NCBI GenBank assembly: GCA_043821285.1
Contig: JBDRCZ010000043.1
Location: 2,903-66,902, forward strand
DNA length: 64,000 nt
Origin: Candidatus Omnitrophota bacterium
GTDB taxonomy: Bacteria > Omnitrophota > Gorgyraeia > B26-G9 > JBDRCZ01
Direction of reading: 5' to 3'
This document shows positions 27,125 to 44,102 of this stretch, in pieces. Under the pieces are notes generated by a model, which was not told the origin of the DNA, did not search any database, and saw nothing but the letters and a program-made list of their open reading frames with translations. Both the position numbers and the translations under genes were made by a program. How positions within the stretch are numbered: the stretch's first letter is position 1; every line of letters begins with the position of its first letter.

Positions 27125-27988
27125 ATGAATAAAAAATCTGAAATTATTACTACATATGAACCGGATAATTCCTTAAAAAATGGCTATCTGGCAATATTTA
27201 AACAAATATTTTTCGAAATCATTAAAAACAGATGGTTAACTTACCAATTATTTAAGCGAGATTTTTTAACGCTTTATAAACAATCTTTTGTAGGAATCGT
27301 ATGGGTGTTTATTGTTCCATTGGTTAGTGTAGGGACTTTTATGGTGTTAAACCGGTCCGGTATTTTTACCGTTGGTAAGATTAATGTGCCTTACCCGGTA
27401 TATGCGATATTAGGCATTGCGTTTTGGCAATTGTTTGCCACCGGTTTGACCGCAACATCTAATTCTATGGTCAATGCTGGAGCAATGATCGTAAAGATTA
27501 ATTTTTCTAAAAAATCACTGGTTTTTGCCTCATTTGGACGGGCAATTATATCTTTTTTAATACAGATTGCTTTACTAAGCCTCTTGTTTGTTTATTACCG
27601 GATTAGACCAAGCATTGCGATCCTAATTCTGCCGCTGTTGATTATACCAATGATGTTACTTTCAATTGGACTCGGATTTATCGTTTCACTTTTAAATGGC
27701 GTAATCAGAGACTTAGGAACAATGCTTCCCATCCTCTTGACGTTCTTTATGTTTTTAACACCGGTCTTATATGCCAAACCGACAACCGGAATGCTCTGTT
27801 ATATTACTAATTATAATATTTTATATTATTTAGTTTCCGTTCCGAGAAATATTTTATTAACCGGTGTGGTGAATTCGAACTCCGACTGGAATGGATTTTT
27901 TATATCCGCGATTATATCGTTTGTCGTCTTTGTAATCTGCCTGGTTATATTTCACCTCACTGAAACACGGGTGGCGGAGAGGATATAA
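27125..27988 (+). CDS. ABC-2 type polysaccharide/teichoic-acid export permease (Wzm/TagG-like)
   Basis: It has 6 transmembrane segments and ABC-2 architecture, and is followed by a Wzt-like ATPase. Confidence 0.75.
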   Translation: MNKKSEIITTYEPDNSLKNGYLAIFKQIFFEIIKNRWLTYQLFKRDFLTLYKQSFVGIVWVFIVPLVSVGTFMVLNRSGIFTVGKINVPYPVYAILGIAFWQLFATGLTATSNSMVNAGAMIVKINFSKKSLVFASFGRAIISFLIQIALLSLLFVYYRIRPSIAILILPLLIIPMMLLSIGLGFIVSLLNGVIRDLGTMLPILLTFFMFLTPVLYAKPTTGMLCYITNYNILYYLVSVPRNILLTGVVNSNSDWNGFFISAIISFVVFVICLVIFHLTETRVAERI

Positions 27989-28046: not shown

Positions 28047-28414
28047 GATGTATTTGTTTCCTTTTAAAAAATTGGAAGTTTGGCGATTGGCTGTAAAATT
28101 AGTTAAGAAGATTTATAGTACGACTAAACGTTTCCCAAAGGAAGAATAATATGGACTAATTAGTCAGTTAAACCAAACTTCTGTTTCTGTAGCTTCTAAT
28201 TTAGCTGAAGGTAGTTCACGAATTAGCAAGAAAGACCAAGCCTATTTTTCACAACTTGCATATAGTTCGCTCATGGAAGTTATTTGTCAAATAAACATTG
28301 CTTAGGAGTTAGGATTTATAACGAGAGATAATTATAAGTATTTGCGAGAAGGAATCAGGATATTATCAAATAAAATCAATTCCTTGAGACACTTTCAAAG
28401 GAAAGGCATACAAT
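28047..28414 (+). pseudogene. Four-helix-bundle protein (23S rRNA intervening-sequence protein family) disrupted by two in-frame stops
   Basis: A single frame reads MMYLFPFKKLEVWRLAVKLVKKIYSTTKRFPKEE*YGLISQLNQTSVSVASNLAEGSSRISKKDQAYFSQLAYSSLMEVICQINIA*ELGFI..., which matches the TIGR02436 consensus but carries in-frame TAA and TAG codons. Confidence 0.65.
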
Positions 28415-29687
28415 GACTAACCCTATCCATTCAACCATTCAACCATTCAACCATTCAACATCATCTGACATTGCAATTAAAGTCGAACATGTCGCAAAAA
28501 AATACTGCAAATCCTTAAAAAGATCAATGATCTATGGGATGCAGGATATTGCCAGAAATACGCTGGGGCTACGTGCTCAGTCTGAAAGATTAAGAAAAGA
28601 GGAATTTTGGGCGTTGGATAATATTTCATTTGAGGTCAAAAAGGGAGAAACCTTGGGTATTATTGGCCCCAATGGTTCAGGGAAAACTACCCTTTTAAAA
28701 ATGTTAAACGGCATCTTTTGGCCGGATAAAGGCAAGATTAGCATAAGAGGCAGAGTTGGAGCACTGATTGAAGTTGGAGCAGGCTTTCATCCTCTACTTA
28801 CCGGAAGAGAAAATATTTATCTTAACGCCGCAATCTTAGGTATGACTAAAAAGGAGGTGAATGATAAATTTGACTCGATTGTCGAGTTTGCCGATATTGG
28901 CGATTTTATTGATTCCCCGGTAAAATTCTACTCCAGCGGGATGTTTGTAAGATTAGGCTTTGCCGTGGCCGTGCATTGTGAACCGGAAATTTTATTGGTA
29001 GATGAGGTTTTGGCAGTGGGAGATAAAGAGTTTTCTATAAAGTGCTATCAAAAAATACATGAGATTAAAAAAAGAGGGGCAACAGTTATTATAGTGTCAC
29101 ATAATGAATATACAATACGTGAACAGACAGAAAATTGTCTATACATAGAAAAAGGGGAAACTAAATTTTATGGCTCAAGCGAAGAGGCAATTAGTATATA
29201 CATAAAAGACAGATATGAGCAAAAATCTAAAAATATCAGCTTGAAAAAATTAGAGTCTTACCCTGTTTCCAAAAAAGCAAAAATAACTTCACTGAATTTT
29301 TTTGATTCGAATTGCAAAGAAATTTCTTATCTTGAATCAGGGCAGGAACTTAATATTGTGTTTGGGTGTATTATACATGAAACATTGCATAACCCCATTT
29401 TCGGCGTTAATTTCTATGATAACAGCGGTTTCATGTATTGTGCGAACAGCGATTATGAAAAAATAGAATTTCAAGAACTACCACCCAAAAAAATTAAGAT
29501 AAAAATTACTATTCTCAATTTCCATTTGCCCGTTAACAGCTATTTTTGTTCCACGATTATTGCTGAGGGAAATGCGGCAAATTTAATAGACTTAGAATAT
29601 ATGAAATATAGAATTGTAGTAGGCAGGGCGAAAAATTCAAGAGGATCTTTAAAATTGCCTACAAAATGGAAAATAGAAACCTTATAG
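28413..29687 (+). CDS. ABC exporter ATP-binding protein (Wzt/TagH-like) with a C-terminal substrate-binding domain
   Basis: It has Walker A (GPNGSGKTT), the signature YSSGM and Walker B (LLVDEVLAVGD), plus an extra roughly 170-aa C-terminal domain. Confidence 0.85.
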   Translation: MTNPIHSTIQPFNHSTSSDIAIKVEHVAKKYCKSLKRSMIYGMQDIARNTLGLRAQSERLRKEEFWALDNISFEVKKGETLGIIGPNGSGKTTLLKMLNGIFWPDKGKISIRGRVGALIEVGAGFHPLLTGRENIYLNAAILGMTKKEVNDKFDSIVEFADIGDFIDSPVKFYSSGMFVRLGFAVAVHCEPEILLVDEVLAVGDKEFSIKCYQKIHEIKKRGATVIIVSHNEYTIREQTENCLYIEKGETKFYGSSEEAISIYIKDRYEQKSKNISLKKLESYPVSKKAKITSLNFFDSNCKEISYLESGQELNIVFGCIIHETLHNPIFGVNFYDNSGFMYCANSDYEKIEFQELPPKKIKIKITILNFHLPVNSYFCSTIIAEGNAANLIDLEYMKYRIVVGRAKNSRGSLKLPTKWKIETL

Positions 29688-29708: not shown

Positions 29709-30413
29709 ATGGGCGCAGAACACAGAATACATAATTTCATTGTGCATCCAGCTTGGCAGCATGTAAAAAAGAAATTATTAACCTCAAAAAGGATTATTGA
29801 TCTTGGCTGCGGAACTAATCCTGTGGCTGCTGCTTCTGTTGCGATAGATCCTTATATTAACCCTATTCAAAGGTCATGCAAGTCAGGAACGCGGATTAAA
29901 AAAAGCATATTTAATAAAAGCGGAATAAAATTTATACAGTCAAGAATTGATGTCAACCTGCCATTTGAGAATAAGGCGTTTGACTTTGCATATTGCCGGC
30001 ATGTAGTTGAACATCTAAAAAATCCTGCAAAGGCTTGTGAGGAAATGATGCGTATTGCAAAAGAAGGGGTTGTTATTTGTCCATCAATTTTTGCGGAACA
30101 ATTATTTGGGCGATCTTATCACAAGTGGTTAGTAATGGATCGTAAAAATCTGCTATTGTTTTTTAAAAAAAGGCTCCATGAAGACAGACCTTTTGGAAAA
30201 CATCCTAACTGGGATAAAAGTAACATGAATTGGATAGCAGAAAAGGATACCAATCCTTTTGATATACTGCTTAATGACGGAGGCTGGTACAAAGGCAAAG
30301 AAAAGATGCCTCGTCTAAGCAGCATTTTAAAAAAATATTGGTGTACGCACTCTCCCGTATTGGAACTTGTTTTTTTCTGGAAAAATAGATTTAACTACAT
30401 AGTCTATAAATAA
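29709..30413 (+). CDS. Class I SAM-dependent methyltransferase
   Basis: It has motif I (IIDLGCGTNP) and a post-I acidic residue, in Methyltransf_11-like form. Confidence 0.55.
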   Translation: MGAEHRIHNFIVHPAWQHVKKKLLTSKRIIDLGCGTNPVAAASVAIDPYINPIQRSCKSGTRIKKSIFNKSGIKFIQSRIDVNLPFENKAFDFAYCRHVVEHLKNPAKACEEMMRIAKEGVVICPSIFAEQLFGRSYHKWLVMDRKNLLLFFKKRLHEDRPFGKHPNWDKSNMNWIAEKDTNPFDILLNDGGWYKGKEKMPRLSSILKKYWCTHSPVLELVFFWKNRFNYIVYK

Positions 30414-30414
30414 G

Positions 30415-31497
30415 ATGAACCTAAAATTAGCAGTTATACCAACTGATCCAATACAAGCATATAAAAACGCTGGGATTTCATCGTGGCTTAAAGATTATTA
30501 TAATCCATTGCAGTTTTTTGATAAGGTATACTTACTGTCTCCATTAGAAAAAATTAAAAGATACGAGTTTGGTATGCATATTATACCAACAAATCCAGCC
30601 GATCTTAAGCGACAAATTAAACAGATCGGCATTGATTTAGTGAGAGCTTATGGCAGTTACTGGGCATGTGATATGGCATGTGATAATAAAGTACCGGGTG
30701 TGCCGGTTGTAGTGTCAGTACATGACACATTTTTGCGTAATCTGCACGACTCAATAAAAAAAGCCGATATTATCCTTTGTGTATCTGGGGCGGTTAAACA
30801 ACATGTTTTGACTAAGGTTAAAGAATTAGACAAAATATGGATTCTTCCGAATAGGGTAGATTTTAATGTTATGAGCCCTAAACCGCTTTTGAAGCCTATC
30901 CGTTTAAATAAAGCTTGTGATTATAAGTACAGAATTTTGCATGTGGGGAGAACCAGCAATGAAAAAAACCTAGATACTTTAATAAAATCATTGGCAATAT
31001 TAGGCACGGGTTACTGTATCGTAGCCATAGGCAAAGGCAATGTAACTAAATATATGAAAATTGCAGATGCACATAAGGTGTTAGAGCAGTGTTTCTTTAT
31101 AGATTCTGTTCCCAACGAAGAACTTGCCGGTTACTATACCTGGGCAAGCTGTATGTGCACTCCAAGCAGAAGCGAAGGCTTTGGTATTGTGTTTATAGAG
31201 GCATTAGCTTGTGGCGCGATAGTTGTGACATCGGATATTGCCCCGATAAATGAATATATAAAGCATATGGAAAATGGGTTGCTTGTGAAAAATTACGAAG
31301 ATCCTCAATCATTGGCAGAATGGATTAGGATTGCCTGTTGTGACCAAAAAATTCGCAAGAATATAAAACAAAAAGCCCGTAACAGCGTAAAAATATTTGA
31401 TAAAAATAATATTGATAAACTAGAGGTTGAGTATTACAAAAAAGTACTTTTATTAAAAAATCAAAATATGTTTAATACTGCATTTTCAAATAGTTAG
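30415..31497 (+). CDS. Glycosyltransferase family 4 (GT-B)
   Basis: Its C-terminal region contains the EGFG motif (RSEGFGIVFIEALACG). Confidence 0.75.
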   Translation: MNLKLAVIPTDPIQAYKNAGISSWLKDYYNPLQFFDKVYLLSPLEKIKRYEFGMHIIPTNPADLKRQIKQIGIDLVRAYGSYWACDMACDNKVPGVPVVVSVHDTFLRNLHDSIKKADIILCVSGAVKQHVLTKVKELDKIWILPNRVDFNVMSPKPLLKPIRLNKACDYKYRILHVGRTSNEKNLDTLIKSLAILGTGYCIVAIGKGNVTKYMKIADAHKVLEQCFFIDSVPNEELAGYYTWASCMCTPSRSEGFGIVFIEALACGAIVVTSDIAPINEYIKHMENGLLVKNYEDPQSLAEWIRIACCDQKIRKNIKQKARNSVKIFDKNNIDKLEVEYYKKVLLLKNQNMFNTAFSNS

Positions 31498-31524: not shown

Positions 31525-33693
31525 ATGAAAAGATCAACCAATATAATAAGTAGTTATCTTAAAACCATTGAATGGGTCAAAAAAAATAGTCTTCCGGAAA
31601 AGGGAATTATAGTAAGTTCATGGCACAATGCCCCTTATCTTGAGGTTACTGGGTATTTAATCCCCACTTTAATTGAGGCGGGGGAACATAAGTTGGCAGA
31701 AAAATATGCGGATTTTCTTTCTTATATGCAAAGACCAAACGGTGCCTTTGCCGGGCCGGATGGTAAAATATATGCTTTTGATACGGCGCAAGCTTTACGC
31801 GGTTTACTATCGGCTTCGCAAATCTGGAGTAAATATAAACAATTTGCACAAAAAGCTGCTGATTATATTAAAGCATGTATTACAAAAACGGGACAAATAC
31901 CTTCCGGTTATAAAAACCAAATTACGGAAAACGTGCACATATACATTTTACCGGCTCTTATGCATGCGGCAAAAATTTTACAAAGACCGGATTATTTTTC
32001 AAAAGCAAACAAATCTGCTATTTATTACATGAATAAGCCAGATATATTTGACACTAATCATCTAACACATTTTCTTGCATACATAATTGATGGGTTTATT
32101 GAAATAGGAGAAGTGAGTTTTATTCGGCCATTTGCAAGAAAAATATTATTATCCCAGAAAAAAAATGGCATGATTCCAGCGTTGCCGAATGCATCATGGA
32201 CTTGCAGTGTAGGGAATGCACAACTGGCAATTATCGGATATAAATTAGGTTTTTATAATGAAGCAGACAAAATATTAAATTATTTGTGCAAAATTCAAAA
32301 CTCAAGCGGTGGTTTTTATGGCAGTTATGGCCCTGGGGCAAGCTATTTTCCTGATAAGGAGATTAGTTGGGCAAATAAATTTTTTATAGATGCGATTTAT
32401 TATAAAGTAAGCTCTTTTTTTGACCGCAATATTAACATTTTTCCATTATTAATTTCTAATAATGATGGACGTGTGAAAGCTGTTTTAGCGCATTCTGGTG
32501 ATTTAAGAAATAAAAAAATATTAGATGCCGGCTGTGGCAAGGGGCGTTTTGCCGTCTTAATAAAAAAATATTTTCCCTCTTGCGAAGTCCATGCAGTTGA
32601 TATTTCCGGTAAGCTGTTAGATTATCTGCCAAAAACTATCCTTAAGGAAAAAGCCAGCATCAAAAATTTACCTTACAAATCAGAAACATTTGATGTTGTC
32701 TATTGCGTGGAAGTATTAGAGCACACGCTGGATCCGGAAAAGGCAATTAATGAAATATGCCGGGTATTAAAAACGGGAGGTAAGCTTATTATAATAGATA
32801 AAAACATTGAGTTTCTGGGTAAACTTAAAATCGTAGATTTTGAACAGTGGTTTAATAAAAATAGAATTAAATGGATTTTAAAAAAACACTGTACTAATGT
32901 ACATGTTGAAAAAATAAGTTACGATTGTAATAAAGCAGACGGTTTATTTCTTGCATGGACTGCAGTCAAAAACACAACGGGTTTAGATAGCAGTAAATGG
33001 CATACAGCAATTATAGGTAAACGGTCAGCCGCAACCTTAGCCGATGCGATTAAAAACAATAAGTTTCCCGTCTGGACAAAGCCGTTGCTTTTGCATACAT
33101 GCCCGGGGGATACAATATTGGAATTAGGCAGTGGTACCGGTGAACTTTCAGTTGTAATGGCAATATATAACAGAAAAATGCATCTTTTGGATTACTCGCA
33201 AAAAAACCTGGAATTTTCTAAAAATATTTTTAAACTACTTCATGTCAAAGGTAATTTTCATCATGCCGATGCCCTTAAAAAATTACCATTCAAAAATAAC
33301 TCTTTTGATTGGATTTTAAGCAGCGGGTTACTGGAACATTTCCCTGATGAGCAGGTGATTAGTATTTTAAAAGAGTCAAAAAGAATTTCTCGCAGAGGTA
33401 CAATGTGCTTAGTACCAAATGCCAATGCGATTTTTTATCAATTTGGCAAATTTAAAATGATAGAGGAAAGAACCTGGCCGTATGGATTTGAAGTTCCTAA
33501 GTTTTCAATGAAACCATATTTTAAAAAAGCTGGTTATAGAAATATTAAAGAATACTCGGTAGGTTCTTACCATGCGCTTAATTTTGTGAGGGGAGATAAA
33601 AAGGCAATAAAAAAATTCTATAATAGTCTAAGCATGTATGAGTTACGGGAATTAAACCAAGGATATTTATTGTTTACTTGCGGAGAGAAATAG
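31525..33693 (+). CDS. Multidomain protein: an N-terminal roughly 300-aa repeat domain (possibly alpha/alpha-toroid, prenyltransferase-like) plus two class I SAM methyltransferase domains
   Basis: Two separate methyltransferase motif I sequences are present (ILDAGCGKGRFA and ILELGSGTGELS). The N-terminal part has G-rich repeats (RPNGAFAGPDG, NSSGGFYGSYGPG). Confidence 0.5.
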   Translation: MKRSTNIISSYLKTIEWVKKNSLPEKGIIVSSWHNAPYLEVTGYLIPTLIEAGEHKLAEKYADFLSYMQRPNGAFAGPDGKIYAFDTAQALRGLLSASQIWSKYKQFAQKAADYIKACITKTGQIPSGYKNQITENVHIYILPALMHAAKILQRPDYFSKANKSAIYYMNKPDIFDTNHLTHFLAYIIDGFIEIGEVSFIRPFARKILLSQKKNGMIPALPNASWTCSVGNAQLAIIGYKLGFYNEADKILNYLCKIQNSSGGFYGSYGPGASYFPDKEISWANKFFIDAIYYKVSSFFDRNINIFPLLISNNDGRVKAVLAHSGDLRNKKILDAGCGKGRFAVLIKKYFPSCEVHAVDISGKLLDYLPKTILKEKASIKNLPYKSETFDVVYCVEVLEHTLDPEKAINEICRVLKTGGKLIIIDKNIEFLGKLKIVDFEQWFNKNRIKWILKKHCTNVHVEKISYDCNKADGLFLAWTAVKNTTGLDSSKWHTAIIGKRSAATLADAIKNNKFPVWTKPLLLHTCPGDTILELGSGTGELSVVMAIYNRKMHLLDYSQKNLEFSKNIFKLLHVKGNFHHADALKKLPFKNNSFDWILSSGLLEHFPDEQVISILKESKRISRRGTMCLVPNANAIFYQFGKFKMIEERTWPYGFEVPKFSMKPYFKKAGYRNIKEYSVGSYHALNFVRGDKKAIKKFYNSLSMYELRELNQGYLLFTCGEK

Positions 33694-33712
33694 TTCTAAC
33701 ATAGAGGAATAA

Positions 33713-35629
33713 ATGGAGTTCCAACATCCAAAAGTTAGCATCATATTGCCTACCTATAATGGCGCAAGATATATACGGCAGGGAATAGAAAGCTGTCTGA
33801 ATCAGACATATAAAAATTTTGAATTGATTGTTGTAGATGATTGCTCGTCTGATCAGACCTCTGCGATAGTTAATGCTTATAATGATTCGCGGTTGTATTA
33901 TTTGAAAAATGACAAAAATAAGGGCATTGCTTACTCACTGAATATCGGGTTTGCAAAATCTACCGGGGGGTATTTAACCTGGACATCTGATGATAACTAT
34001 TATCAGCCGGTGGCCATTGAACAACTAACACAAATGCTCGATCGAAACACCGGAATAGATTTTGTATATTCAAATTATTATTATATAGATGAACATGATA
34101 ACATAATTAAACTAAAAGAAGTTATGCCATCAGATAAACTGGTTGAAGTGAACTGTATTGGTCCGTGTTTTTTGTTTCGCAGAAACGTCTATACTGTAAT
34201 TGGCAAATTTAATGAGGAAATGTTTCTTGCTGAAGATTATGACTATTGGGTTCGGGTTTCGCAGCACTTTAAAATGCAGCCTTTTCCCATACCATTGTAC
34301 TATTACAGAATACATGCAGACAACTTAACCAGTAAGTATTCCCCTGAGGAGATTGCTGAACAAGCCGAACGCGTAAAAGATAAATATTTTACAACCGTTA
34401 ATGATTATTTTTTTCGAGCTAAGTTTTTGAAAAAAACGACCAATCGCAAAGGCGCAAAGCGGCTACTAATAAAATCACTAATCCTTAACCCATTTAAGCT
34501 GGAAAAATGGAACTTTTTGCTAAGATTGTTATTAGATAGAAATACGATTAATTTTTTACATAGGCTTATGAATCATCTTGGGATGAAATGCCCTTTGCCG
34601 CAGTCGTTTACTTTTATAATGATAGATAAATGTTCGGCCCGTTGTATAATGTGTGGGATAGACTACAATCAGAATAATAATCCAAAGGAACTTTCATTTG
34701 ATAAATATCTGACAGTGTTTGAGCACATGCCAAAGAAGGTAGTCAAGGACATAACTTTTTCCGGGGGCGGTGAACCTCTGTTAAATAAGGATCTTTTGAA
34801 AATCATAAGGTTTACACGCAACAGCATCCCTAATGTGAACTTATCTATTTATACGAACGGTATTATGTTAACTGAAGAAATATCAACAGGTTTATTGGAA
34901 AACGATTTTAAGGAAATCATAATATCAATTAACGCTGCCACACCGGAAACTTATTTTCAAATAGCCCGTGTTAATGCTTTTAATACGGTTATCAAAAATG
35001 TAAAAGCCCTTGTTAAGTTAAAGAAAAATTTATTTAAAAATACTAAAATCCAATTTTCCTTTGTGGCTTTACAAAAAAATATCAGCGAGCTGCCAAAATT
35101 AGTTAAGTTAGCGGCAGAGGTAGATGTGGATAGTGTTCATATGCAATATTGCCGTTTTTATTCCCAAAAATATACAACCGACTTAAAAGAATTAAATAAC
35201 GAAGCTTTACCCCATGAGGAATCATTATATTTTTGCCAGGATTTATCCGATAAACTGATTAAAAACAGCCAATATTTAGCAAGAGAGCTAAATATTGAAT
35301 TTATGCATGAGCCATGTTTTAATAAAGCCCCATCAGGCATTAGGTGTACATGGCCATTTAAAGCTATTTTTGTATATCCTGACGGTACGGTTTTTCCATG
35401 CGGCGGGGGGGAAATAATTTTTAATAAGGCGATATATGAAAACAAGCTTTACTTTGGTAATCTGTTACAGAACAATATAGAAACTTTTTGGAATAATGAG
35501 GCATATAAACTAATAAGGCAGAGTTGTAACATGCGTAATAAAACCATACCGCAGTGTAATAACTGTAATTATACAATATGGCAGCAAGGGGTCAACAATA
35601 AAAAAAGTCATTTTATAGAAATAGTATAA
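33713..35629 (+). CDS. Fusion protein: GT2 glycosyltransferase (N-terminal) plus radical SAM / SPASM-like domain (C-terminal)
   Basis: It has GT2 motifs (VSIILPTYNGARY...VVDDCSSD). The CxxxCxxC motif (CSARCIMC) is at about residue 305, and Cys-rich C-terminal motifs are present (CTWPF...PCGGG...CNNCNY). Confidence 0.6.
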   Translation: MEFQHPKVSIILPTYNGARYIRQGIESCLNQTYKNFELIVVDDCSSDQTSAIVNAYNDSRLYYLKNDKNKGIAYSLNIGFAKSTGGYLTWTSDDNYYQPVAIEQLTQMLDRNTGIDFVYSNYYYIDEHDNIIKLKEVMPSDKLVEVNCIGPCFLFRRNVYTVIGKFNEEMFLAEDYDYWVRVSQHFKMQPFPIPLYYYRIHADNLTSKYSPEEIAEQAERVKDKYFTTVNDYFFRAKFLKKTTNRKGAKRLLIKSLILNPFKLEKWNFLLRLLLDRNTINFLHRLMNHLGMKCPLPQSFTFIMIDKCSARCIMCGIDYNQNNNPKELSFDKYLTVFEHMPKKVVKDITFSGGGEPLLNKDLLKIIRFTRNSIPNVNLSIYTNGIMLTEEISTGLLENDFKEIIISINAATPETYFQIARVNAFNTVIKNVKALVKLKKNLFKNTKIQFSFVALQKNISELPKLVKLAAEVDVDSVHMQYCRFYSQKYTTDLKELNNEALPHEESLYFCQDLSDKLIKNSQYLARELNIEFMHEPCFNKAPSGIRCTWPFKAIFVYPDGTVFPCGGGEIIFNKAIYENKLYFGNLLQNNIETFWNNEAYKLIRQSCNMRNKTIPQCNNCNYTIWQQGVNNKKSHFIEIV

Positions 35630-36537
35630 TGAAAGTATTATTTATATATTTTGATACCGCAAGCTCAGAGCCTCCCCGCATAGGGATGGGGGTTGCTTAT
35701 TTATCTGCCTACTTAAAAAAAAGCCGCCATGCATCCAAACTGTGTTATTTCCGTTCATCAGAAGATATTAACCACGTTTTAACCATTATAAAAGAATGGA
35801 GCCCAAATATTATTGCCTATTCCGCCACCACTTCGTCTTTTTTTTCCATATCCGATGTCACAAAAAAAGTAAAAGCTGACTTTCCTGATTTGTTTCAAAT
35901 TTGCGGGGGATATCATATCTCAATGTGTCCGGATGAGTTTTTAAACCGGCCAGAATTAGACGCAATTTGTGTTGGTTATGGAGAGCAGCATTTGTTAGAA
36001 CTTGCCGAAGCAATACAAAATGGAAAAAAATATCTTAACATTCGAAATATTTTTTTCCGGCATAACGGGAAAATAATTAAAAATGCATTGCGGCCTTTTC
36101 CCAAAGAGCTGGATTCTTTTATGCCTTGTGACCGTCAAATTTTTATGCATGAGCTAAGAAGATTTTCTATTCCTATACCATTTGGGGGAATTTTTGGCGA
36201 AAATCTTCAGGAATTTATATTTTGCCGAGGATGTCCTTTTGACTGCAGTTTTTGCTGCAACCATGCATTTAAAAAAATGGGGGTAGGCAAATATATTTGT
36301 TATCCTTCAGTTTCAAAATGCATAAAGAATAATTTATTTAAAAAAGAAGAAAATCAAAAGATATTTAAAGAAAGGAAAGATACAATTCTTAAGTTATCTT
36401 ATTTCACAAATGAATTTATGCAGTTTTATTTAAAAAACTTTAAAAATCTTATACAATTCGAGTATTTATCTAATAAATATAAAATTATTAAAAAATTACT
36501 TCCCCTAAATCTAAGAAATCAAAAAATTATTGCTTGA
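35629..36537 (+). CDS. B12-binding-domain radical SAM protein, apparently truncated (302 aa)
   Basis: It has an N-terminal B12-binding-like region (MKVLFIYFDT...) and CPFDCSFC at about residue 200. The C-terminal roughly 90 aa are low-complexity and not radical-SAM-like. Confidence 0.45.
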   Translation: MKVLFIYFDTASSEPPRIGMGVAYLSAYLKKSRHASKLCYFRSSEDINHVLTIIKEWSPNIIAYSATTSSFFSISDVTKKVKADFPDLFQICGGYHISMCPDEFLNRPELDAICVGYGEQHLLELAEAIQNGKKYLNIRNIFFRHNGKIIKNALRPFPKELDSFMPCDRQIFMHELRRFSIPIPFGGIFGENLQEFIFCRGCPFDCSFCCNHAFKKMGVGKYICYPSVSKCIKNNLFKKEENQKIFKERKDTILKLSYFTNEFMQFYLKNFKNLIQFEYLSNKYKIIKKLLPLNLRNQKIIA

Positions 36538-36631
36538 ATTATGGATAAAGTGTTTATGCGCACAAGGACTATTTCATTAAAATTGATTAAAATGTTTATG
36601 CGCGTGATATAAAGACCGGAGAATTTGTAGA

Positions 36632-37594
36632 ATGAACAGTGAAGCGAAGGTAAGTGTAATTATCCCATTATATGATCAAAAGCAATATGTTTCAGAAGCC
36701 ATAGAAAGTGTCGTAACTCAAACTTATCCAAATATTGAACTCATTGTCGTAAATGATGGTTCGACTGATGATCCATATTCTGTGCTTGAAAAATATAATA
36801 CAAAGATTAAGCTTGTTAACCAAAAAAATAGAGGTCTGGCAGCAGCAAGAAACACCGGAATACAAAATTCCTCGGGAGATTATTTGCAGTTTTTAGATGC
36901 CGATGACTGCTTACATCCGGAAAAAATCAGATTGCAATTAGAGTTCACAACTAAGCAGGGCGCAACTGTTTCTTATTGTGAAATAGCCCAATACGACCAA
37001 AATTCTCAACACCAATATATAAATTATGTTGGAGAAGTTAAAGATATGTTTGTCCATTTATATAACTTTTGGTATATATATCCTGTGCCAATCCATTCAT
37101 TACTCTTTAAAAGAGATATCTTTGAAAAGTTTGGCCTATTTGATGAAAAATTGAAAGCCTGTGAAGATCGATATTTTTTAAGTAAACTCATATTACAAGG
37201 TGTGCGCTTTGCATATTTTCCATTGATAGGAGGCGTGCGTAGGAAACATAAATACAATATGAATAATAACAAATTGCATATTATAAAAAACACTATAAAA
37301 TATTATAAAAAAATAAATCGTGAATTAGGAGATGATTGGTTTATTAAAAAATTTAATTATAGTGGATACGAAATGACATGTGCCAATTTAACATACATAT
37401 ATGGAGATTGTATCGCGAATAATGCCGGGCATCAAACATTAAAGATAGTTAAAAAATTGTATAAAAAGGAAAATATAAAATTTAATGCTAAACCGATACC
37501 ATTAGCGGTAAAAAGATATAAATTAATATTTCTGTTTGCAGCCGCTTACTTTAAAAAATGGAAAAAAGCACTGTTAACAGGGGATAATTTATAA
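36632..37594 (+). CDS. Glycosyltransferase family 2
   Basis: It has VSVIIPLYDQKQYVSEAIESVVTQTY...VVNDGSTDD and a DAD motif. Confidence 0.8.
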   Translation: MNSEAKVSVIIPLYDQKQYVSEAIESVVTQTYPNIELIVVNDGSTDDPYSVLEKYNTKIKLVNQKNRGLAAARNTGIQNSSGDYLQFLDADDCLHPEKIRLQLEFTTKQGATVSYCEIAQYDQNSQHQYINYVGEVKDMFVHLYNFWYIYPVPIHSLLFKRDIFEKFGLFDEKLKACEDRYFLSKLILQGVRFAYFPLIGGVRRKHKYNMNNNKLHIIKNTIKYYKKINRELGDDWFIKKFNYSGYEMTCANLTYIYGDCIANNAGHQTLKIVKKLYKKENIKFNAKPIPLAVKRYKLIFLFAAAYFKKWKKALLTGDNL

Positions 37595-38187
37595 TGCACC
37601 AAGAAGAATCGATCTGGATAAATCAGACATTAAAAGAAGTAGATATGGCTTTTATCAAAGAGGCGTTAGATGTGGGTTCATCTACAAAACAGTTTAGAAC
37701 CCAGATCCAACCATACATAGATAAATATGTCTTTAAGCTGTTAAGGGATAATGGAATATCAATTAGATATTTGGATAAAAAGGATACAGAGGGGGTAGAT
37801 TATGTGTGTGATATAGAAAACATAACCGCAGCAAAGCTTGATAAACAATTCGATCTGGTAATTTGCTGCAGTTTATTGGAACATGTAAAAAATCCCGAAA
37901 AAGTATGTGCGCTCTTAGTTGATCTGGTTAGTGATGGCGGGTACTTGTTAGTTTCTGTCCCAAAAGTTTATCGTTACCATCCTGATCCTATAGACACGAT
38001 GTTTCGTCCCACGCTTGAGGAACTTATTGGTATGTTTCATGGAATAAGAATTATAAAAAAAGACACGATCAATATAAAAGATAAAAATAAGTATAAAAGG
38101 GATCGAGTCACAGAATTAGTCAGATATCTTTTATCACCCTTCAATTGGAAGATTCACTGCCTTTTAATGGAAAAAAATAGAAAATGA
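37594..38187 (+). CDS. Class I SAM-dependent methyltransferase
   Basis: It has LDVGSS and a Methyltransf_11-like core (LLEHVKNPEK). Confidence 0.55.
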   Translation: MHQEESIWINQTLKEVDMAFIKEALDVGSSTKQFRTQIQPYIDKYVFKLLRDNGISIRYLDKKDTEGVDYVCDIENITAAKLDKQFDLVICCSLLEHVKNPEKVCALLVDLVSDGGYLLVSVPKVYRYHPDPIDTMFRPTLEELIGMFHGIRIIKKDTINIKDKNKYKRDRVTELVRYLLSPFNWKIHCLLMEKNRK

Positions 38188-39401
38188 AAATTGCATTTAT
38201 CGTAACGGAATTCCCGTCTTTGTCAGAAACATTTGTTCTAAATCAAATAACGGGTTTGGTAGACTTAGGACATGAAGTGGCGATATTTGCTTATATTAGG
38301 CCCCGTGATAAAGAAGTACATACTGATGTACAAACATATAATCTTTATAACCGCGTAACATATTTTAACATGCCTAAAAATAAAATAATGCGTATAATGA
38401 AAGCTTTCTGGTTATTTATTTTTAACTTTTACAAATGGCCAGTTGAAACATTAAAATCTCTAAACTTTATTCGATTTGGTAAAAGTACATGGAATTTAAC
38501 TTTATTTTATTGTCTGATGCCTTTTTTAGGCAGTTCATTTGACATAATCCATTGTCACTTTGGTCCTAACGGTATTATTGGTGCGGCACTTAAAGATATC
38601 GGAATCCAAGGCAAAATTGTCACAGTATTTCATGGCCGGGATTTGTCGACTTTTATTAGGGAGCAGGGACATTTTACATATAGAAATCTGTTTAAAAATG
38701 GAGACTTATTTTTACCGGTTAGCAATTACTGGGAAAAAAAGTTGATTAGCTTAAAAGGTAACAGTAAAAATATAAAAGTTCATCATATGGGGATAGATTT
38801 GGCTAAATTTGCTTTTAATACTAGAAGAATTTTTTCTAATGAAACAATAAAAATATTAACTATAGGAAGACTGGTAGAAAAGAAAGGATACAAATATTCT
38901 ATCCAAGCAATCGCCAGATTGTGCAGCAAATATAAAAATATCGAATATATAATAGCCGGGGAAGGACCGTTAAGAGCTAAGTTAGAAGCATTTGCAGAAA
39001 AATTAAATATTCAAAATCATATAAAATTTCTCGGGAGGCTCAGTCAAACCGAGATCATTAAACTATATGAAAAAGTTCATATATTTGTTCTCGCAAGCAT
39101 CACTGCCTCAGATTGTGACCAGGAGGGTATCCCGATAGTTTTGATGGAGGCTCAAGCAGCTGGCTTGCCGGTTGTTTCTACTCATTACAGCGGAATTTCA
39201 GAAGTGGTTTTAAACGGTAAATCAGGTTTTCTTGTGCCGGAAAAAGATCAAAATGCGTTGTCAGAAAAATTAAGTTATCTCATCGAACATCCAGATGAAT
39301 GGTCTGATATGGGAAAGGTTGGTCGGAGTCTTATTGCGAAATATTATAATATTAGAGAATTGAATGGACAGTTAGTAGAAACCTTTAAATCAATTTTATG
39401 A
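38184..39401 (+). CDS. Glycosyltransferase family 4 (WcaL-like)
   Basis: It has a GT-B C-terminal motif (EGIPIVLMEAQAAGLPVVST). Confidence 0.8.
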   Translation: MKIAFIVTEFPSLSETFVLNQITGLVDLGHEVAIFAYIRPRDKEVHTDVQTYNLYNRVTYFNMPKNKIMRIMKAFWLFIFNFYKWPVETLKSLNFIRFGKSTWNLTLFYCLMPFLGSSFDIIHCHFGPNGIIGAALKDIGIQGKIVTVFHGRDLSTFIREQGHFTYRNLFKNGDLFLPVSNYWEKKLISLKGNSKNIKVHHMGIDLAKFAFNTRRIFSNETIKILTIGRLVEKKGYKYSIQAIARLCSKYKNIEYIIAGEGPLRAKLEAFAEKLNIQNHIKFLGRLSQTEIIKLYEKVHIFVLASITASDCDQEGIPIVLMEAQAAGLPVVSTHYSGISEVVLNGKSGFLVPEKDQNALSEKLSYLIEHPDEWSDMGKVGRSLIAKYYNIRELNGQLVETFKSIL

Positions 39402-40174
39402 TTAATCATCAGTGGTATATACATAAAAAAATCAAAATGTTAATTAAAAAAATATTAAAAAATACAGCATTTTATCCGGTCCATATCGGGGAGTATATTA
39501 GAAAGTTGTATTTTTATAATTATCTGCATCGATTACCAATTAAAAATATTACCAATGTGCTTGATGCCGGCTGTGGAGACGGAACATATGCTCTATGGAT
39601 GGCACATGCCTTTCCGTGGCTTCAGGTAACGGGTATTGATATTATGCCCCCAGGGTTTCAAGGAAAAAAAACACAAAACTGTCATTTCCGATATGGTGAC
39701 CTCACAAAGTTAGATGATAAGTATAAATATGATTTTATTTATTGTATTGACGTTTTAGAACATATTCCGGGTAATTTTAATGTATTAAAACGTATGTTTA
39801 ATAGCTTAAAACCAGATGGTTACCTTTATATTCATATGCCAACTAAGGATAATCAACGTATGTTTCCCAAAAGATATTTTGAAGAATTTGATAATCGAAT
39901 GTCTAAAGAACATATTGGTGAACAGTATCAGCAAAAAGAAATTATTGATATCTTAAAATCAATTGGGTTCAATATTCTTTTATCAAAACAAACTATGGGT
40001 TTTTATGGTAAAATAGCCTGGGAAATTGACCGGATTATTGATAATCAAAAAAGCATTAAAGTATTACTTATGCCGATATTAAAAATTCTTTCCCATTTTG
40101 AGCTTTATGCTCCGAAAATCGGCGGGAATGGAATATTGGTTATTGGCAAAAAACCATATAACAAAAATGAATAA
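39398..40174 (+). CDS. Class I SAM-dependent methyltransferase
   Basis: It has motif I (VLDAGCGDGTYA). Confidence 0.65.
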   Translation: MINHQWYIHKKIKMLIKKILKNTAFYPVHIGEYIRKLYFYNYLHRLPIKNITNVLDAGCGDGTYALWMAHAFPWLQVTGIDIMPPGFQGKKTQNCHFRYGDLTKLDDKYKYDFIYCIDVLEHIPGNFNVLKRMFNSLKPDGYLYIHMPTKDNQRMFPKRYFEEFDNRMSKEHIGEQYQQKEIIDILKSIGFNILLSKQTMGFYGKIAWEIDRIIDNQKSIKVLLMPILKILSHFELYAPKIGGNGILVIGKKPYNKNE

Positions 40175-41108
40175 ATTAAACAAACCGGCTGTTAGTGTAA
40201 TTATCCCGACTTATAATCGGGCAAATTTATTATGCCGGGCATTGAAAAGTGTGCTTAACCAGACATATCAGGATTTTGAAGTGCTGATTATCGATGATTG
40301 TTCGACAGATGATACTACAAGGATTGTGAAGAGTGTTAATGATAAAAGACTTGCCTATATTTATCTTAATGAGCAAAGCGGAGCAGCACATGCACGAAAT
40401 ATCGGCATAAAGCATTCACGGGGTGAGTTTATTGCGTTTCAAGATAGTGATGATGAATGGACAGCAGAAAAATTACAAGAACAAATGGATGTTATCCAGC
40501 ATTCATCCGCAGTTGTCGGGGTGGTTTATTCAGCATTTTACAGAATAGAGGGCGATAAGACCAGCTATATTTGTTTTCCAGAAATAAAAAAGAAAGAAGG
40601 GAATATCCATTCTACAATCTTAAGAAAAAATTTTATTGATACCACCACCGTGCTTGTCCGCAAGATTTGTTTCGAAAAATCAGGACTGTTTGACAGATCT
40701 CTGCCGCGTCTGCAGGATTGGGAATTATGGATCAGGGTATCCCAACATTACCATTTTAAATATATAACCGAACCGTTAGTAAAGGCTTACTGTACAGCCG
40801 GGGGTATTTCTGCTAATGATGTCGCCTATCATACGGCACGCGAGATTATATTTAAAAAACACTTTGCTGAGATTCGGCAGCATCCCGCATTGCTTGCAGA
40901 AAATTATTATTATTTTGGCAACAACTTATGCTTAGAGGGAGAGATAAACAGCGGAAGGTCTTACATCATCAAAGCATTAAAAATAAAACCTTTGAATCTT
41001 AAAATCCTGATTGCTGTTTTTTTAGTGCTGTATATGCCGGAAAAATATGCGCAGATGATAAAGGCTTTAAGATACTTTTGGGACAGATTAAACTTTTTGC
41101 GCAACTAA
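40167..41108 (+). CDS. Glycosyltransferase family 2
   Basis: It has VSVIIPTYNRANLL...IIDDCSTDDT. The likely start is the internal ATG at 40167, whereas the track ORF starts at 40098. Confidence 0.8.
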   Translation: MNKLNKPAVSVIIPTYNRANLLCRALKSVLNQTYQDFEVLIIDDCSTDDTTRIVKSVNDKRLAYIYLNEQSGAAHARNIGIKHSRGEFIAFQDSDDEWTAEKLQEQMDVIQHSSAVVGVVYSAFYRIEGDKTSYICFPEIKKKEGNIHSTILRKNFIDTTTVLVRKICFEKSGLFDRSLPRLQDWELWIRVSQHYHFKYITEPLVKAYCTAGGISANDVAYHTAREIIFKKHFAEIRQHPALLAENYYYFGNNLCLEGEINSGRSYIIKALKIKPLNLKILIAVFLVLYMPEKYAQMIKALRYFWDRLNFLRN

Positions 41109-41132
41109 ACGTATAATGGATGATAAATAACA

Positions 41133-42068
41133 ATGAAAACAGAGAATAATCGCAATTGTGAGCTGATAGATATTTCATTTATAATCATAAATTATAATAC
41201 TGGCACGCTGCTGAAAAATTGTATTGCATCTATTTATAATTGTTGTAAGAATATATCATTTGAAATTTTGGTCGTGGATAATGCCTCGGAAGATGAAAGT
41301 ATCTTAATGGTCAAAAAAAATTTTTCAATGGTTACAATCGTAGAAAATAATAAAAATGTAGGTTTTTCCAAGGCAAATAACCAGGCGATCCAGCAAAGTA
41401 AAGGCAGCTACCTGTTTTTGCTTAATCCGGACACAAAGATTATTGCTGCAAACATGAATAATTTAATTGAATTTATGGATAAAAACAGCGGTATTGGTGC
41501 AGTAGGAGCTGCCTTATTAAACCAGGACGGAACCCCTCAGCCTTCTTGCCGCCAACTGCCTTCATTAAAGAGCATATTTTGGAAAACATTATTGCTGGAT
41601 AGTAAAAATTTTCAGCAAACTACATTTGACTTTCCTCAGGAAATAGAACAGCCTATGGGAGCAGCCATTGTTGTCAGAAGGATGGCTCTGGATAAAATCG
41701 GCTTGTTCGATGAACAATTTTTTTTGTATTATGAAGAAGTCGATTTATGTAAACGTCTGAAAGATGCCGGCTGGAAAATATATTTTTACCCCGAAATAAA
41801 AATTATTCATTATGGGTGTATTTCTTCATTTCAGTTTTTTTCTAAAAATATCGTTGAAAATTATCGAAGTCTTTATAAATATTTTCATAAGCATTACCAT
41901 CATTGTTGTCTGCCAGTCTTAAAACTGCTTACCTCCGCAGGGATTGCGATAAAAATTATGATGCTTGCTGTTGCCGTGATAATTCATTCAGGAAATAAGA
42001 ATAAAAAAGCATATACTATGCGTTTTAAAGGATATAGCGCGCTGTTTATAAAAAATATTTTTTTATAA
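41133..42068 (+). CDS. Glycosyltransferase family 2 (rhamnosyltransferase-like)
   Basis: It has ISFIIINYNTG...VVDNASEDE and a C-terminal transmembrane helix. Confidence 0.75.
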   Translation: MKTENNRNCELIDISFIIINYNTGTLLKNCIASIYNCCKNISFEILVVDNASEDESILMVKKNFSMVTIVENNKNVGFSKANNQAIQQSKGSYLFLLNPDTKIIAANMNNLIEFMDKNSGIGAVGAALLNQDGTPQPSCRQLPSLKSIFWKTLLLDSKNFQQTTFDFPQEIEQPMGAAIVVRRMALDKIGLFDEQFFLYYEEVDLCKRLKDAGWKIYFYPEIKIIHYGCISSFQFFSKNIVENYRSLYKYFHKHYHHCCLPVLKLLTSAGIAIKIMMLAVAVIIHSGNKNKKAYTMRFKGYSALFIKNIFL

Positions 42069-42075
42069 CAAAATA

Positions 42076-43149
42076 ATGAAAAAAATACTTTTTTTAACAC
42101 AGACCGGCGTAAAAGGCCCGGCAAGCCGTTACCGGGCTTATCAGTTTCTTGATTACCTTAGGCGAAACGGCTTTTACTGCCAGGTATCCGCAGCAATAGA
42201 AGATAGCTGTTTTGATTTGTTTTATTCTCAGGAAAAGCCAAGATTATTAAAAAAACTGCTAACTGTTTTTCTGAAAAGACTAAAGGATTTTAACAAAATA
42301 AAAGATTATGACATTATTTTTCTGCAGCGAGAAGTTTTGCCGCAAGTATATCCGGTTATTGAAAGAATTATTTATTTAATGAATAAAAAAATAATTTTCG
42401 ATTTTGATGATGCCATATTTTTAATCCCCCCGCAAAGAAAAAGTGTAATATACGATTTCCGATATAAGAATAATATAAAAGAAATTATAAAAATGAGCAC
42501 GGCGGTTATTGCCGGTAATGATTATTTAGCAGATTATGCCAAGCAGTATAATCAAAATGTTTACATGCTTCCCACTGTTGTTGATAGCGATAAATTTGAT
42601 GATTATAAAAAACGTTATGTCTGGAAAGAGCGCATGATAATTGGCTGGATTGGTTCTTTGCATACGCTTTTTTACCTGGCTAATATTAAAGATGTATTTA
42701 AAAAATTGAACCGCAAATATAAAATATCCCTGCATGTCATCGGTGTGACAAACTTTTTTATTGATGAGGTAGAGGTTATAAATAAACCGTGGAGCTTGGA
42801 AACTGAACTTTTTGATCTGAAACAAATTGATATTGGGGTTGCCCCGTTATTAGATGATGAATGGGGAAGAGGGAAATGTGGCTTGAAGGCATTGCAATAT
42901 ATGTCCGGTGGTATTCCGGTGGTATGTTCAAACGCCGGGGTATATAAAAAAATTATTAAAGATGGTGATAATGGATTTTTGGCAGATAATGAAGAACAAT
43001 GGATTGAAAAATTGTCCATTTTAATAACAAATACAAATATGAGAAAAAAAATGGCATCAGCTGCCCGAAAAACAATTGAAGAAAAATATTCCTTAAAAGT
43101 TAATGCGCCTAAACTGAGATTAATTTTAGAAAAAGTTTCTTCAGGATAG
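42076..43149 (+). CDS. Glycosyltransferase, GT-B fold (group 1-like)
   Basis: The C-terminal half has a GT1-like sugar-donor region (GLKALQYMSGGIPVVCSNAGV). Confidence 0.5.
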   Translation: MKKILFLTQTGVKGPASRYRAYQFLDYLRRNGFYCQVSAAIEDSCFDLFYSQEKPRLLKKLLTVFLKRLKDFNKIKDYDIIFLQREVLPQVYPVIERIIYLMNKKIIFDFDDAIFLIPPQRKSVIYDFRYKNNIKEIIKMSTAVIAGNDYLADYAKQYNQNVYMLPTVVDSDKFDDYKKRYVWKERMIIGWIGSLHTLFYLANIKDVFKKLNRKYKISLHVIGVTNFFIDEVEVINKPWSLETELFDLKQIDIGVAPLLDDEWGRGKCGLKALQYMSGGIPVVCSNAGVYKKIIKDGDNGFLADNEEQWIEKLSILITNTNMRKKMASAARKTIEEKYSLKVNAPKLRLILEKVSSG

Positions 43150-43690: not shown

Positions 43691-44102
43691 TAAACATTTG
43701 GAACTATTAAGAGGATATGTTGCTGATATTATCGAAATGAAACGAGAGGTAACATTAGATGAGCTGAAAAAAGATAAGCATAAACAGTATCAAATATTAT
43801 TTCCTTTACAGGTGGCTATCCAATCCTGCATAGATATTGCGATGCATTTTATTGCAGAGTTATCTTTAAAAAGACCAGAAACCAATAGTGAAATATTTTT
43901 TATTTTAAGTCAAGAAAAAATTGTACTAAAAGATTTAGCCGAAAGAATGACGGCGATGGTAAAATTTAGAAATTTATTGGTTCATATTTATTGGAAGATA
44001 GATCTCGATAAAGTTTATGCAATACTTCAAGATGGTCTTGATGATTTTACTAAATTTGAAAAAGCGGTCGTAAGATTTCTCGAATCTAAAGATAAACTAT
44101 AG
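43665..44102 (+). CDS. hepT: HepT/DUF86 HEPN-family toxin
   Basis: It has the DUF86 motif RNLLVHIYWKID (Rx4HxY). Confidence 0.75.
   Translation: MVLDLPAINKHLELLRGYVADIIEMKREVTLDELKKDKHKQYQILFPLQVAIQSCIDIAMHFIAELSLKRPETNSEIFFILSQEKIVLKDLAERMTAMVKFRNLLVHIYWKIDLDKVYAILQDGLDDFTKFEKAVVRFLESKDKL

Follow-up and report, generated by a model that had tools for sequence, protein, structure and literature searches.

The known radical S-adenosylmethionine (SAM) enzymes that modify sugars, such as BtrN, DesII, BlsE, AprD4 and GenK, act on small-molecule substrates in antibiotic pathways. BtrN, the butirosin 2-deoxy-scyllo-inosamine dehydrogenase, is the archetypal radical SAM enzyme with a twitch domain and abstracts the hydrogen from a carbinol carbon. 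A sugar ring carbon is the site of radical chemistry in both BlsE (cytosylglucuronate decarboxylase) and DesII (TDP-sugar deaminase/dehydrogenase). AprD4 is a dehydratase, and its B12-like domain is not known to serve in methylation. Chain termination of the Escherichia coli O8/O9a O-antigens involves WbdD, a methyltransferase (with or without a kinase) with a coiled-coil ruler, and Wzt with its carbohydrate-binding module (Wzt-CBM). The mycobacterial 3-O-methylmannose polysaccharide (MMP) cluster comprises MeT1, MmpH, pMeT3 and the family 4 glycosyltransferase (GT4) ManT, and the MMP hydrolase MmpH has the catalytic Glu262 with Asp47/Asp50 (PMC9883506). Here we describe three neighbouring genes of a Candidatus Omnitrophota bacterium, located at positions 31525-36537 of a 64,000-nucleotide stretch of DNA (assembly GCA_043821285.1, contig JBDRCZ010000043.1, positions 2,903 to 66,902 of the forward strand), hereafter the window. 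They encode a protein with a toroid and two methyltransferase (MT) modules (toroid-MT-MT), a fusion of a family 2 glycosyltransferase (GT2) with a radical SAM enzyme, and a B12-binding radical SAM protein.

We consider it rather likely that these genes are co-transcribed parts of one Wzm/Wzt-CBM polysaccharide pathway and come from conserved uncharacterised families, rather than being idiosyncratic fusions. We also propose, tentatively, that GT2, twitch radical SAM and GT2 may form an undescribed broad glycan-assembly module, in which, between two transfers, the radical SAM enzyme would modify a sugar of the chain while this is growing or lipid-linked. It may often be helped by B12-radical SAM and toroid-MT-MT proteins. 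The taxa in question are Omnitrophota, Desulfobacterota/Geobacter, Nitrospirota, Armatimonadota, Planctomycetota, Bacteroidota and Methanosarcinales. All three open reading frames (ORFs) have exactly the boundaries assigned to them by an initial annotation of the window. Their parts, with lengths in amino acids (aa) and positions in nucleotides (nt), are as follows.

31525-33693, + strand: toroid-MT-MT protein, 722 aa (Pfam, AlphaFold model)
31543-32427, + strand: (α/α)6 toroid domain, aa 7-301 (AlphaFold model)
32467-32979, + strand: first SAM methyltransferase module, aa ~315-485, motif LDAGCGKG (Pfam Methyltransf_11/25/31; Rossmann fold in the model)
33022-33693, + strand: second SAM methyltransferase module, aa ~500-722, motif LELGSGTG (second Pfam stretch; MTS at aa 528-599)
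33713-35629, + strand: GT2-radical SAM fusion, 638 aa (Pfam, all three domains above their cut-offs)
33734-34342, + strand: GT2 (GT-A) domain (Pfam PF00535, 110.9 bits, cut-off 23.3, match at aa 9-160)
34595-35332, + strand: radical SAM core with CX3CX2C = C307/C311/C314 (nt 34631-34654) and GGGEP motif (Pfam Radical_SAM, 64.2 bits, aa 302-438, cut-off 29.5)
35345-35569, + strand: twitch-type auxiliary Fe-S domain with four conserved Cys (Pfam SPASM, 45.1 bits, aa 545-619)
35629-36537, + strand: defective B12-binding radical SAM gene, 302 aa (Pfam, homolog alignment)
36324/36325, + strand: junction of the in-frame internal deletion, after ...PSVSKCI; 157 codons = 471 nt lost (protein alignment A1, residue counting)
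36538-36612, + strand: decayed 3' end of the B12-radical SAM gene, in-frame reading IMDKVFMRTRTISLKLIKMFMRVI* (translation; resembles homolog tails, e.g. ..IIAFFMRTISGF.. of P0123)

The fusion is a soluble two-enzyme protein, which consists of an intact inverting GT2 and a radical SAM enzyme with one BtrN-type twitch cluster site. No membrane segments are predicted in the 638-aa fusion or in the 722-aa protein. The acidic motifs of the GT2, D42-D43, D93-D94 (DxD) and E174-D175, are intact and are conserved in 25-26 of 26 homologs. In the radical SAM half, alignment A3 with 13 homologs contains exactly seven invariant cysteines. These are the triad C307/C311/C314, which belongs to the motif for the SAM-cleaving [4Fe-4S] cluster and whose presence was a key point of the initial annotation, and C545, C563, C615 and C618; the fifth C-terminal cysteine, C604, is not conserved. 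G351, G353 and P355 of the SAM-binding motif SGGGEP are also invariant. The predicted model of aa 295-540 is built of alternating β/α elements (pLDDT about 90-98).

The spacing of the auxiliary cysteines, C545-X17-C563 ... C615-X2-C618, is that of the twitch form, the abridged SPASM, with cluster binding as a prediction only. In the HMMER alignment these four residues fall opposite matching Cys columns of the BtrN C-terminal domain. With respect to the seven-Cys SPASM motif CX9-15GX4C ... CX2CX5CX3C ... C, the CX2CX5CX3C block is absent and four C-terminal cysteines are conserved. That the Pfam SPASM model nevertheless gives 45.1 bits is due to its coverage of the half shared with the twitch. 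Hence, the GT2-CxxxCxxC/SPASM-like fusion of the initial annotation stands, and in terms of Pfam its SPASM-like label is right as well; the auxiliary domain is a four-Cys twitch, however, and not a seven-Cys SPASM. The best PDB sequence matches of the radical SAM half are BtrN (4.6e-9) and BlsE (7e-8), with DesII further down, and the best fold matches of the corresponding half of the model (pLDDT about 90) are DesII, SkfB, SuiB, BlsE, viperin and BtrN. In NCBIfam, no equivalog fits any of the three proteins, and for the B12-radical SAM protein all family scores are far below the cut-off.

The radical SAM family is tied to GT2s wherever it is found, in the layout GT2, radical SAM, GT2, where the genes are neighbours or are fused in one order or the other. 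The word-indexed search with the fusion gives both domains only in P0002, P0003 and P0004 among the best 120 matches. P0003 and P0004 are reverse-order fusions, and full-length homologs with the same order from independent samples are P0002 (42% identity) and P0298 (46%). The exhaustive search, with the radical SAM half as the query against 1.84 billion representatives, yields 86 clusters at E<1e-30. Most of them are multidomain proteins of 600-2,700 aa, where the radical SAM domain is N-terminal, in the middle or C-terminal. The Pfam scan of 45 of the 86 clusters shows Radical_SAM in 43, SPASM in 42 and GT2 (PF00535) in 29. Four giant relatives have 3-5 GT2 domains and TPR repeats, and P0302 (2130 aa) unites GT2, B12-binding/Radical_SAM, radical SAM-SPASM, GT2 and TPR in a single chain.

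The genome scan, with one genome per GTDB species and two peptide patterns found only in the radical SAM part, gives 40 loci, all in metagenome-assembled genomes (MAGs). The ORFs of these loci were classified with custom hidden Markov models (HMMs) of GT2 and radical SAM. The source taxa are Methanosarcinales, Nitrospira, Thermodesulfovibrionia, Bacteroidota, Armatimonadota, Geobacter, other Desulfobacterota, Victivallales, Planctomycetota and Schekmanbacteria. The radical SAM is fused to GT2 or lies directly beside a GT2 gene in 40 of the 40 loci. The fused orders are gt2-rsam, gt2-rsam-gt2, gt2-gt2-rsam-gt2 and rsam-gt2-gt2(-gt2...), in proteins of up to about 3,200 aa. In about 17 of the loci the domains are unfused, and most of these have GT2 (~350 aa), radical SAM (~390 aa) and GT2 (~330 aa) as neighbours. 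That fusions exist in both orders and that the adjacency is conserved is classic evidence for a joint function of the partners. The same pattern rules out an assembly chimera, a possibility that the initial annotation had kept in view and that is excluded as well by the shared architecture of the independent homologs P0002 and P0298 (42-46% identity). Its statement that such a fusion is rare is contradicted by the 40 loci and the 86 clusters.

The version found in the window is the fused GT2a-radical SAM, followed by the broken B12 gene and then by a GT2. Further downstream, the phmmer comparison gives the GT2 genes 40098-41108 and 41133-42068 as the best counterparts of GT2 domains one and two, in this order, of fused radical SAM-GT2-GT2 proteins from other phyla. 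The window thus holds the parts of a radical SAM-GT2-GT2 module, unfused and rearranged. The domains themselves are already known; no description of a glycosyltransferase-coupled radical SAM module was found in the open-access full-text literature, and the conserved coupling of radical SAM with GT2 is, as far as could be found, undescribed.

Two side observations concern the relatives of the fusion. In a Nitrospiraceae MAG (L013, 1434-13155), a 1498-aa ORF with two B12-radical SAM domains directly precedes a 2435-aa ORF with radical SAM and three GT2 domains; judged by their domain strings, this pair and P0302 look like glycan 'megasynthases'. The GT2 subfamily to which the fusion belongs is promiscuous in the domains it is joined to, as seen in P0015 (709 aa) and other word-search matches. 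Its partners are GT4, polysaccharide deacetylase, UDP-GlcNAc 2-epimerase, methyltransferase, a flippase-like domain and a toroid of the SQHop_cyclase_C type.

The toroid-MT-MT protein is a compact three-domain protein, conserved beside Wzm/Wzt_C and GT4. Its AlphaFold model, built on 67 homologs (pLDDT 94.7, pTM 0.87), has 12 helices in aa 7-301 (toroid pLDDT about 96), followed by two Rossmann-type domains. Pfam Methyltransf_11 matches with 125 bits in two stretches, aa ~326-444 and ~528-631, and E533, G535 and D556 of the second module are invariant across homologs. The repeat domain and two MT modules of the initial annotation are thus recovered as a 12-helix toroid and two methyltransferases above the Pfam thresholds. 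For the toroid itself the Pfam scores are below threshold (SQHop_cyclase_C 20.3 bits against 26.1, Prenyltrans 17.0 bits against 26.5). In the Foldseek search against solved structures its best toroid match is MmpH (7qsj; TMt 0.67, root-mean-square deviation 3.8 Å over 318 columns, E 2.6e-9), and the profile of 16 toroid domains detects in the PDB squalene-hopene cyclase repeats at 4e-7 in one repeat region only (aa 59-127).

There are more than 100 full-length toroid-MT-MT homologs with 38-62% identity, so that the protein is not as unusual as was first thought. Size variants include a toroid with one MT (~550 aa) and longer forms with GT4 (~900 and ~1,100 aa), the ~1100-aa form being found in L020. 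GT4 is usually encoded directly upstream of the toroid-MT-MT gene, with synteny in L003, L047 and L048. Wzm and Wzt with Wzt_C lie a few genes upstream in five of seven independent contexts (the window, L003, L046, L047 and L048). In the Geobacter loci L020/L021 the order toroid-MT-MT-GT4, MT, GT2, radical SAM-GT2-TPR-GT2 mirrors the window. Hence, the three genes regarded as unusual travel together across phyla.

Across the homologs the toroid (31525-32427) has invariant D86, H182, C227, E279 and D289 and three Q-x3-G repeat motifs. D86/H182/C227 presumably resemble the Zn-binding triad of prenyltransferase β subunits, and judged from residue conservation this D/H/C set could be a metal site of that kind. 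E40 is likewise invariant. The otherwise syntenic locus L003 has, at 5710-6072, a small gene of a '23S rRNA intervening sequence protein' (PF05635) between wzm and wzt.

The B12-radical SAM gene is inactivated in this genome by an in-frame deletion of 157 codons and a premature stop. The 302-aa ORF has a B12-binding domain (49.4 bits, aa 20-125, nt 35686-36003) and CPFDCSFC at nt 36232-36255, and it gives no Radical_SAM match in Pfam. Full-length homologs, for which the initial annotation had advised a search, do exist (P0122-P0127, 482-491 aa, 57-66% identity) and carry B12-binding and Radical_SAM domains. Residues 1-232 of the ORF correspond to positions 1-233 at the N-terminus of the homologs (154/232 identical to P0122, 66%) and residues 233-302 to their real C-terminal region (42/70 identical, 60%). 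Between these parts, 157 residues of the six closest homologs have no counterpart in the ORF (alignment A1), and the HMM of the intact homologs matches it in two pieces, model positions 1-233 and 387-459. The junction was placed by protein alignment, not by DNA alignment against L002, the locus of P0122. A microhomology TG(C/T)(A/G)T is present at both ends of the deletion and is only suggestive. The deletion takes the barrel from just past the cluster-binding loop onward, and the 302-aa product therefore cannot be a working radical SAM enzyme.

The second lesion is the premature TGA at 36535-36537. Since the tail in front of it aligns with the C-terminal region of the homologs, the supposed low-complexity sequence is a genuine coding C-terminus; since the frame behind it resembles homolog tails, the supposed spacer is former coding sequence. 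The direct repeat noticed there, TGTTTATGCGC, is present in this decayed 3' coding end, although exact over 11 nt and not 12. Its copies, at 36551 and 36593, are 42 nt apart and in frame, preceded once by G and once by A, and they encode (V/M)FMR of the decayed tail. Two copies are seen against 0.02 expected by chance. Thus, of the decayed gene in the initial annotation, the B12 domain, the CPFDCSFC motif and the non-functional state are retained, but truncation into low-complexity sequence gives way to the internal deletion with the premature stop. The kept parts are as conserved as in intact orthologs, which leaves two options for the deletion, a recent event or an artefact of assembly.

The intact homolog matches AprD4 (1e-15) in the PDB ahead of TokK (3e-7). 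As the best solved relative is a dehydratase, methylase chemistry is not established for this enzyme, and the earlier class-B methylase assignment is one option only, AprD4 ranking before the methylase TokK. More distant relatives of the B12-radical SAM protein are encoded immediately upstream of the radical SAM-GT2 ORF in about 10 of the 40 loci, and P0122, the closest full-length homolog, sits among three radical SAM+GT2 gene pairs. This makes the B12 enzyme an optional accessory of the GT2-radical SAM module. To judge by the lesions in the gene, the modification that it once made is probably missing from the glycan of this strain.

The glycan genes around the three ORFs, co-directional and joined by short or overlapping junctions, extend over roughly 28 kb of a window with G+C of ~35% and nearly all genes on the + strand. 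At the junction of the second and third genes the start codon of the 302-aa gene overlaps the stop of the 638-aa gene (TAATG). The locus holds Wzm, Wzt with Wzt_C, five MT domains, four GT4 and seven GT2, all on the + strand, and we count as supported the view of the initial annotation that the glycan bears heavy methylation and other modifications. The other genes of the locus are listed below.

27125-27988, + strand: Wzm-like ABC-2 permease, first gene of the glycan locus (Pfam ABC2_membrane; 6 transmembrane (TM)-like segments)
28413-29687, + strand: Wzt ABC ATPase with C-terminal carbohydrate-binding Wzt_C (Pfam ABC_tran 83 bits, Wzt_C 53.6 bits, cut-off 30.4)
29709-30413, + strand: stand-alone SAM methyltransferase (Pfam Methyltransf_11/23)
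30415-31497, + strand: GT4 glycosyltransferase directly before the toroid-MT-MT gene (Pfam Glycos_transf_1, 123.5 bits)
36632-37594, + strand: GT2 in the position of the downstream GT2 of the GT2-radical SAM-GT2 layout (Pfam GT2, 119.9 bits; triad pattern of related loci)
37594-43149, + strand: remaining co-directional glycan operon in the order MT, GT4, MT, GT2, GT2, GT4 (Pfam)
44274-46163, + strand: AsnB-like amidotransferase (Pfam)
46395-47519, + strand: second radical SAM gene, 374 aa (Pfam)
47731-48711, + strand: GT2 after the second radical SAM gene (Pfam)

Past the main operon the order is AsnB-like amidotransferase, second radical SAM, GT2, two 9-TM+TPR proteins, GT2 and PMT_2. The second radical SAM protein is a distant relative of that in the fusion (22% identity, E 2e-8), and its gene is again directly upstream of a GT2 gene. 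It was compared with the extra radical SAM beside the fusion in L001, and orthology between the two was rejected. At the distal end of the locus, the ~9-TM proteins with C-terminal TPR are encoded at 48687-50333 and 50383-52314 (+ strand) and the PMT_2 protein of the GT-C type at 53267-55099 (+ strand). These three proteins could serve the attachment of the glycan to a protein or lipid acceptor.

We suggest the following mechanism. The GT2 of the fusion would transfer a sugar to the chain, and the attached radical SAM enzyme would then generate the 5'-deoxyadenosyl radical and abstract the hydrogen from a ring carbon of that sugar residue or of the acceptor, the substrate being a lipid-linked or nascent glycan. 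The twitch cluster would take care of the electron, as in BtrN. The product may be a keto, epimerised, deoxygenated or decarboxylated sugar, formed before the next GT2 extends the chain. The toroid would grip the end of the glycan chain and the two methyltransferases would O-methylate that end. This may result in a methylated cap read by Wzt_C, in a WbdD-like termination, or in a polymethylated segment.

Several observations weigh against the proposed pathway and mechanism. The substrate and reaction of the radical SAM enzyme are deduced from neighbours and distant relatives alone, with 16-19% identity to solved structures, and the peptide-modifying SPASM enzymes SkfB, SuiB and CteB appear among the fold matches with E-values similar to those of the sugar enzymes. 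Protein binding is conceivable for the TPR domains of the giant relatives. Confidence in the GT2 half of the fusion model is low because alignment A3 was used as the model input, and the relative placement of the two domains is therefore not readable from the model. For the toroid, MmpH is missing from the PDB matches of the 16-domain profile at E<=10, where terpene-cyclase and prenyltransferase repeats appear instead; MmpH, MeT1 and ManT are likewise absent from the PDB matches of the toroid profile, the MT domains and the GT4. As sequence homology is not detected, we treat MmpH as a fold analogue only and do not file the toroid as a member of its family. In two of the seven toroid contexts Wzm/Wzt are outside the fetched flank, and the deletion in the B12 gene is known from a single MAG assembly.

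The genes might also be read, as at the outset, as rare lineage-specific fusions next to a class-B radical SAM methylase that lost its C-terminus and decayed into low-complexity sequence. The domains are those first described, the B12 gene is clearly defective, and the word search offers only three other GT2+radical SAM proteins among its best 120 matches. However, the exhaustive search and the genome scan show the GT2-radical SAM pairing to be widespread and conserved, and full-length toroid-MT-MT homologs number more than 100. Moreover, the 302-aa ORF keeps its real C-terminus with the lesion being an internal 157-codon deletion, and with AprD4 as the best solved relative methylation is not established. 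We regard this explanation as very improbable. The defect of the B12 gene, on the other hand, might be a MAG assembly artefact, with a full-length gene in the organism itself. The exact 302-aa protein is known from one contig only, and its kept parts, as conserved as intact orthologs (66% and 60% identity), bear no sign of long-term decay. Yet the deletion is exactly in frame, an independent second lesion, the premature TGA with the divergent tail, follows downstream, and no long collapse-prone repeat is seen at the junction, which leaves the artefact unlikely.

A protein or peptide could be the substrate instead of a glycan: the radical SAM enzyme of the TPR-bearing GT2-radical SAM(twitch)-GT2 proteins would then crosslink or epimerise it and the GT2s would glycosylate it, with a glycoprotein or a glycopeptide resembling ribosomally synthesised and post-translationally modified peptides (RiPPs) as the product. 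This would agree with the SPASM/twitch enzymes SkfB, SuiB and CteB among the best fold matches, with the TPR repeats fused in many relatives and with the PMT_2 gene and 9-TM+TPR membrane proteins downstream in the window. But no small precursor-peptide gene or RiPP recognition element is seen, Wzm/Wzt polysaccharide exporters are present in the window and in the P0002 locus, and the best PDB sequence matches are radical SAM enzymes acting on sugars. Most peptide-modifying SPASM enzymes have two auxiliary clusters, whereas the fusion has a single auxiliary cluster site, as in BtrN. Hence, we find a peptide substrate quite improbable. As for the toroid, it may be a lipid- or polyprenyl-binding module of the terpene-cyclase/prenyltransferase type, or a metal-dependent catalytic one, which docks the methyltransferases onto an undecaprenyl-linked intermediate rather than binding or cutting the glycan. 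The profile matches to squalene-hopene cyclase (4e-7), other terpene cyclases and prenyltransferase β subunits, the sub-threshold SQHop_cyclase_C and Prenyltrans matches and the invariant D86, H182 and C227, with their presumed likeness to the Zn triad, fit such a role. The best solved toroid structure is nevertheless the glycoside hydrolase MmpH, the sequence matches are confined to one repeat region (aa 59-127) and the 722-aa protein has no predicted membrane segments. A lipid-directed toroid keeps some weight but is, in our judgement, rather unlikely, and we retain the polysaccharide pathway with a glycan-binding toroid as the preferred reading.

Elsewhere in the window, two small overlapping ORFs lie in the middle of the glycan locus (43250-44102, + strand). 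The 146-aa ORF has a nucleotidyltransferase-like motif GS..G.....SDLD and the 145-aa ORF a HEPN-like motif R-x4-H, and by motif reading alone the pair looks like an MNT/HEPN toxin-antitoxin system. A gene of transfer-messenger RNA (tmRNA) is found at 3303-3730 (+ strand; Rfam 188.8 bits). Its tag according to ARAGORN, VPATVDQLIEKIGTGIANPIMAVPLAVAVLR*, is unusually long and atypical; this may reflect a mistaken prediction or a tag that is out of the ordinary for the phylum.

If the proposed module holds true, radical carbohydrate tailoring takes place at the level of the polymer, not of the nucleotide sugar, and sugar structures new to bacterial polysaccharides could result. Radical chemistry during polymer assembly would widen the known range of glycan modifications, and hundreds of entries annotated as 'glycosyltransferase / radical SAM' would gain a function. 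The radical SAM family is obligatorily coupled to glycosyltransferases in the polysaccharide loci of many uncultured anaerobes and archaea. This coupling is a concrete target, as one fusion protein would supply both the glycosyltransferase and its partner radical SAM enzyme. In the capping or methylation of ABC-exported glycans, the toroid-MT-MT family may play the part that WbdD plays elsewhere. Last, the broken B12 gene indicates that strain-level glycan variation can come from one in-frame deletion.

Compared with the described systems, the locus shares parts with several of them. As in the WbdD system, there is an ABC-transporter pathway, Wzt has a C-terminal carbohydrate-binding domain, and a methyltransferase protein is encoded just downstream of wzm-wzt. 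However, WbdD has neither a toroid nor two methyltransferases, and the likeness rests on gene context: an MT gene is located beside wzm/wzt with Wzt_C in five of the seven toroid loci, and several other methyltransferases of the locus could equally be the terminator. With the MMP cluster the locus shares the same four parts, namely the (α/α)6 barrel, two SAM methyltransferases and GT4, here in the form of the fused toroid-MT-MT with GT4 adjacent or in one 1100-aa chain. MMP is cytoplasmic and actinobacterial, whereas the toroid loci carry an exporter, and the analogy would hold at the level of fold and parts list only. The full-length homologs of the 302-aa ORF have the B12-binding and Radical_SAM domains in common with TokK and AprD4; the copy in the window lacks 157 barrel residues and is not a working class B member. 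BlsE and DesII are among the top sequence and fold matches of the radical SAM part of the fusion (16-19% identity), but their substrates in antibiotic pathways are monosaccharides linked to a nucleotide or nucleoside, and they are not coupled to a glycosyltransferase. BtrN has the same CX3CX2C and C-X17-C ... C-X2-C pattern and a carbohydrate-like substrate. At about 19% identity, however, it is a free-standing protein of 250 aa that acts on a small molecule in aminoglycoside biosynthesis, whereas the radical SAM domain of the fusion has a greater length (~345 aa), is joined to GT2 or encoded beside it and belongs to polysaccharide loci.

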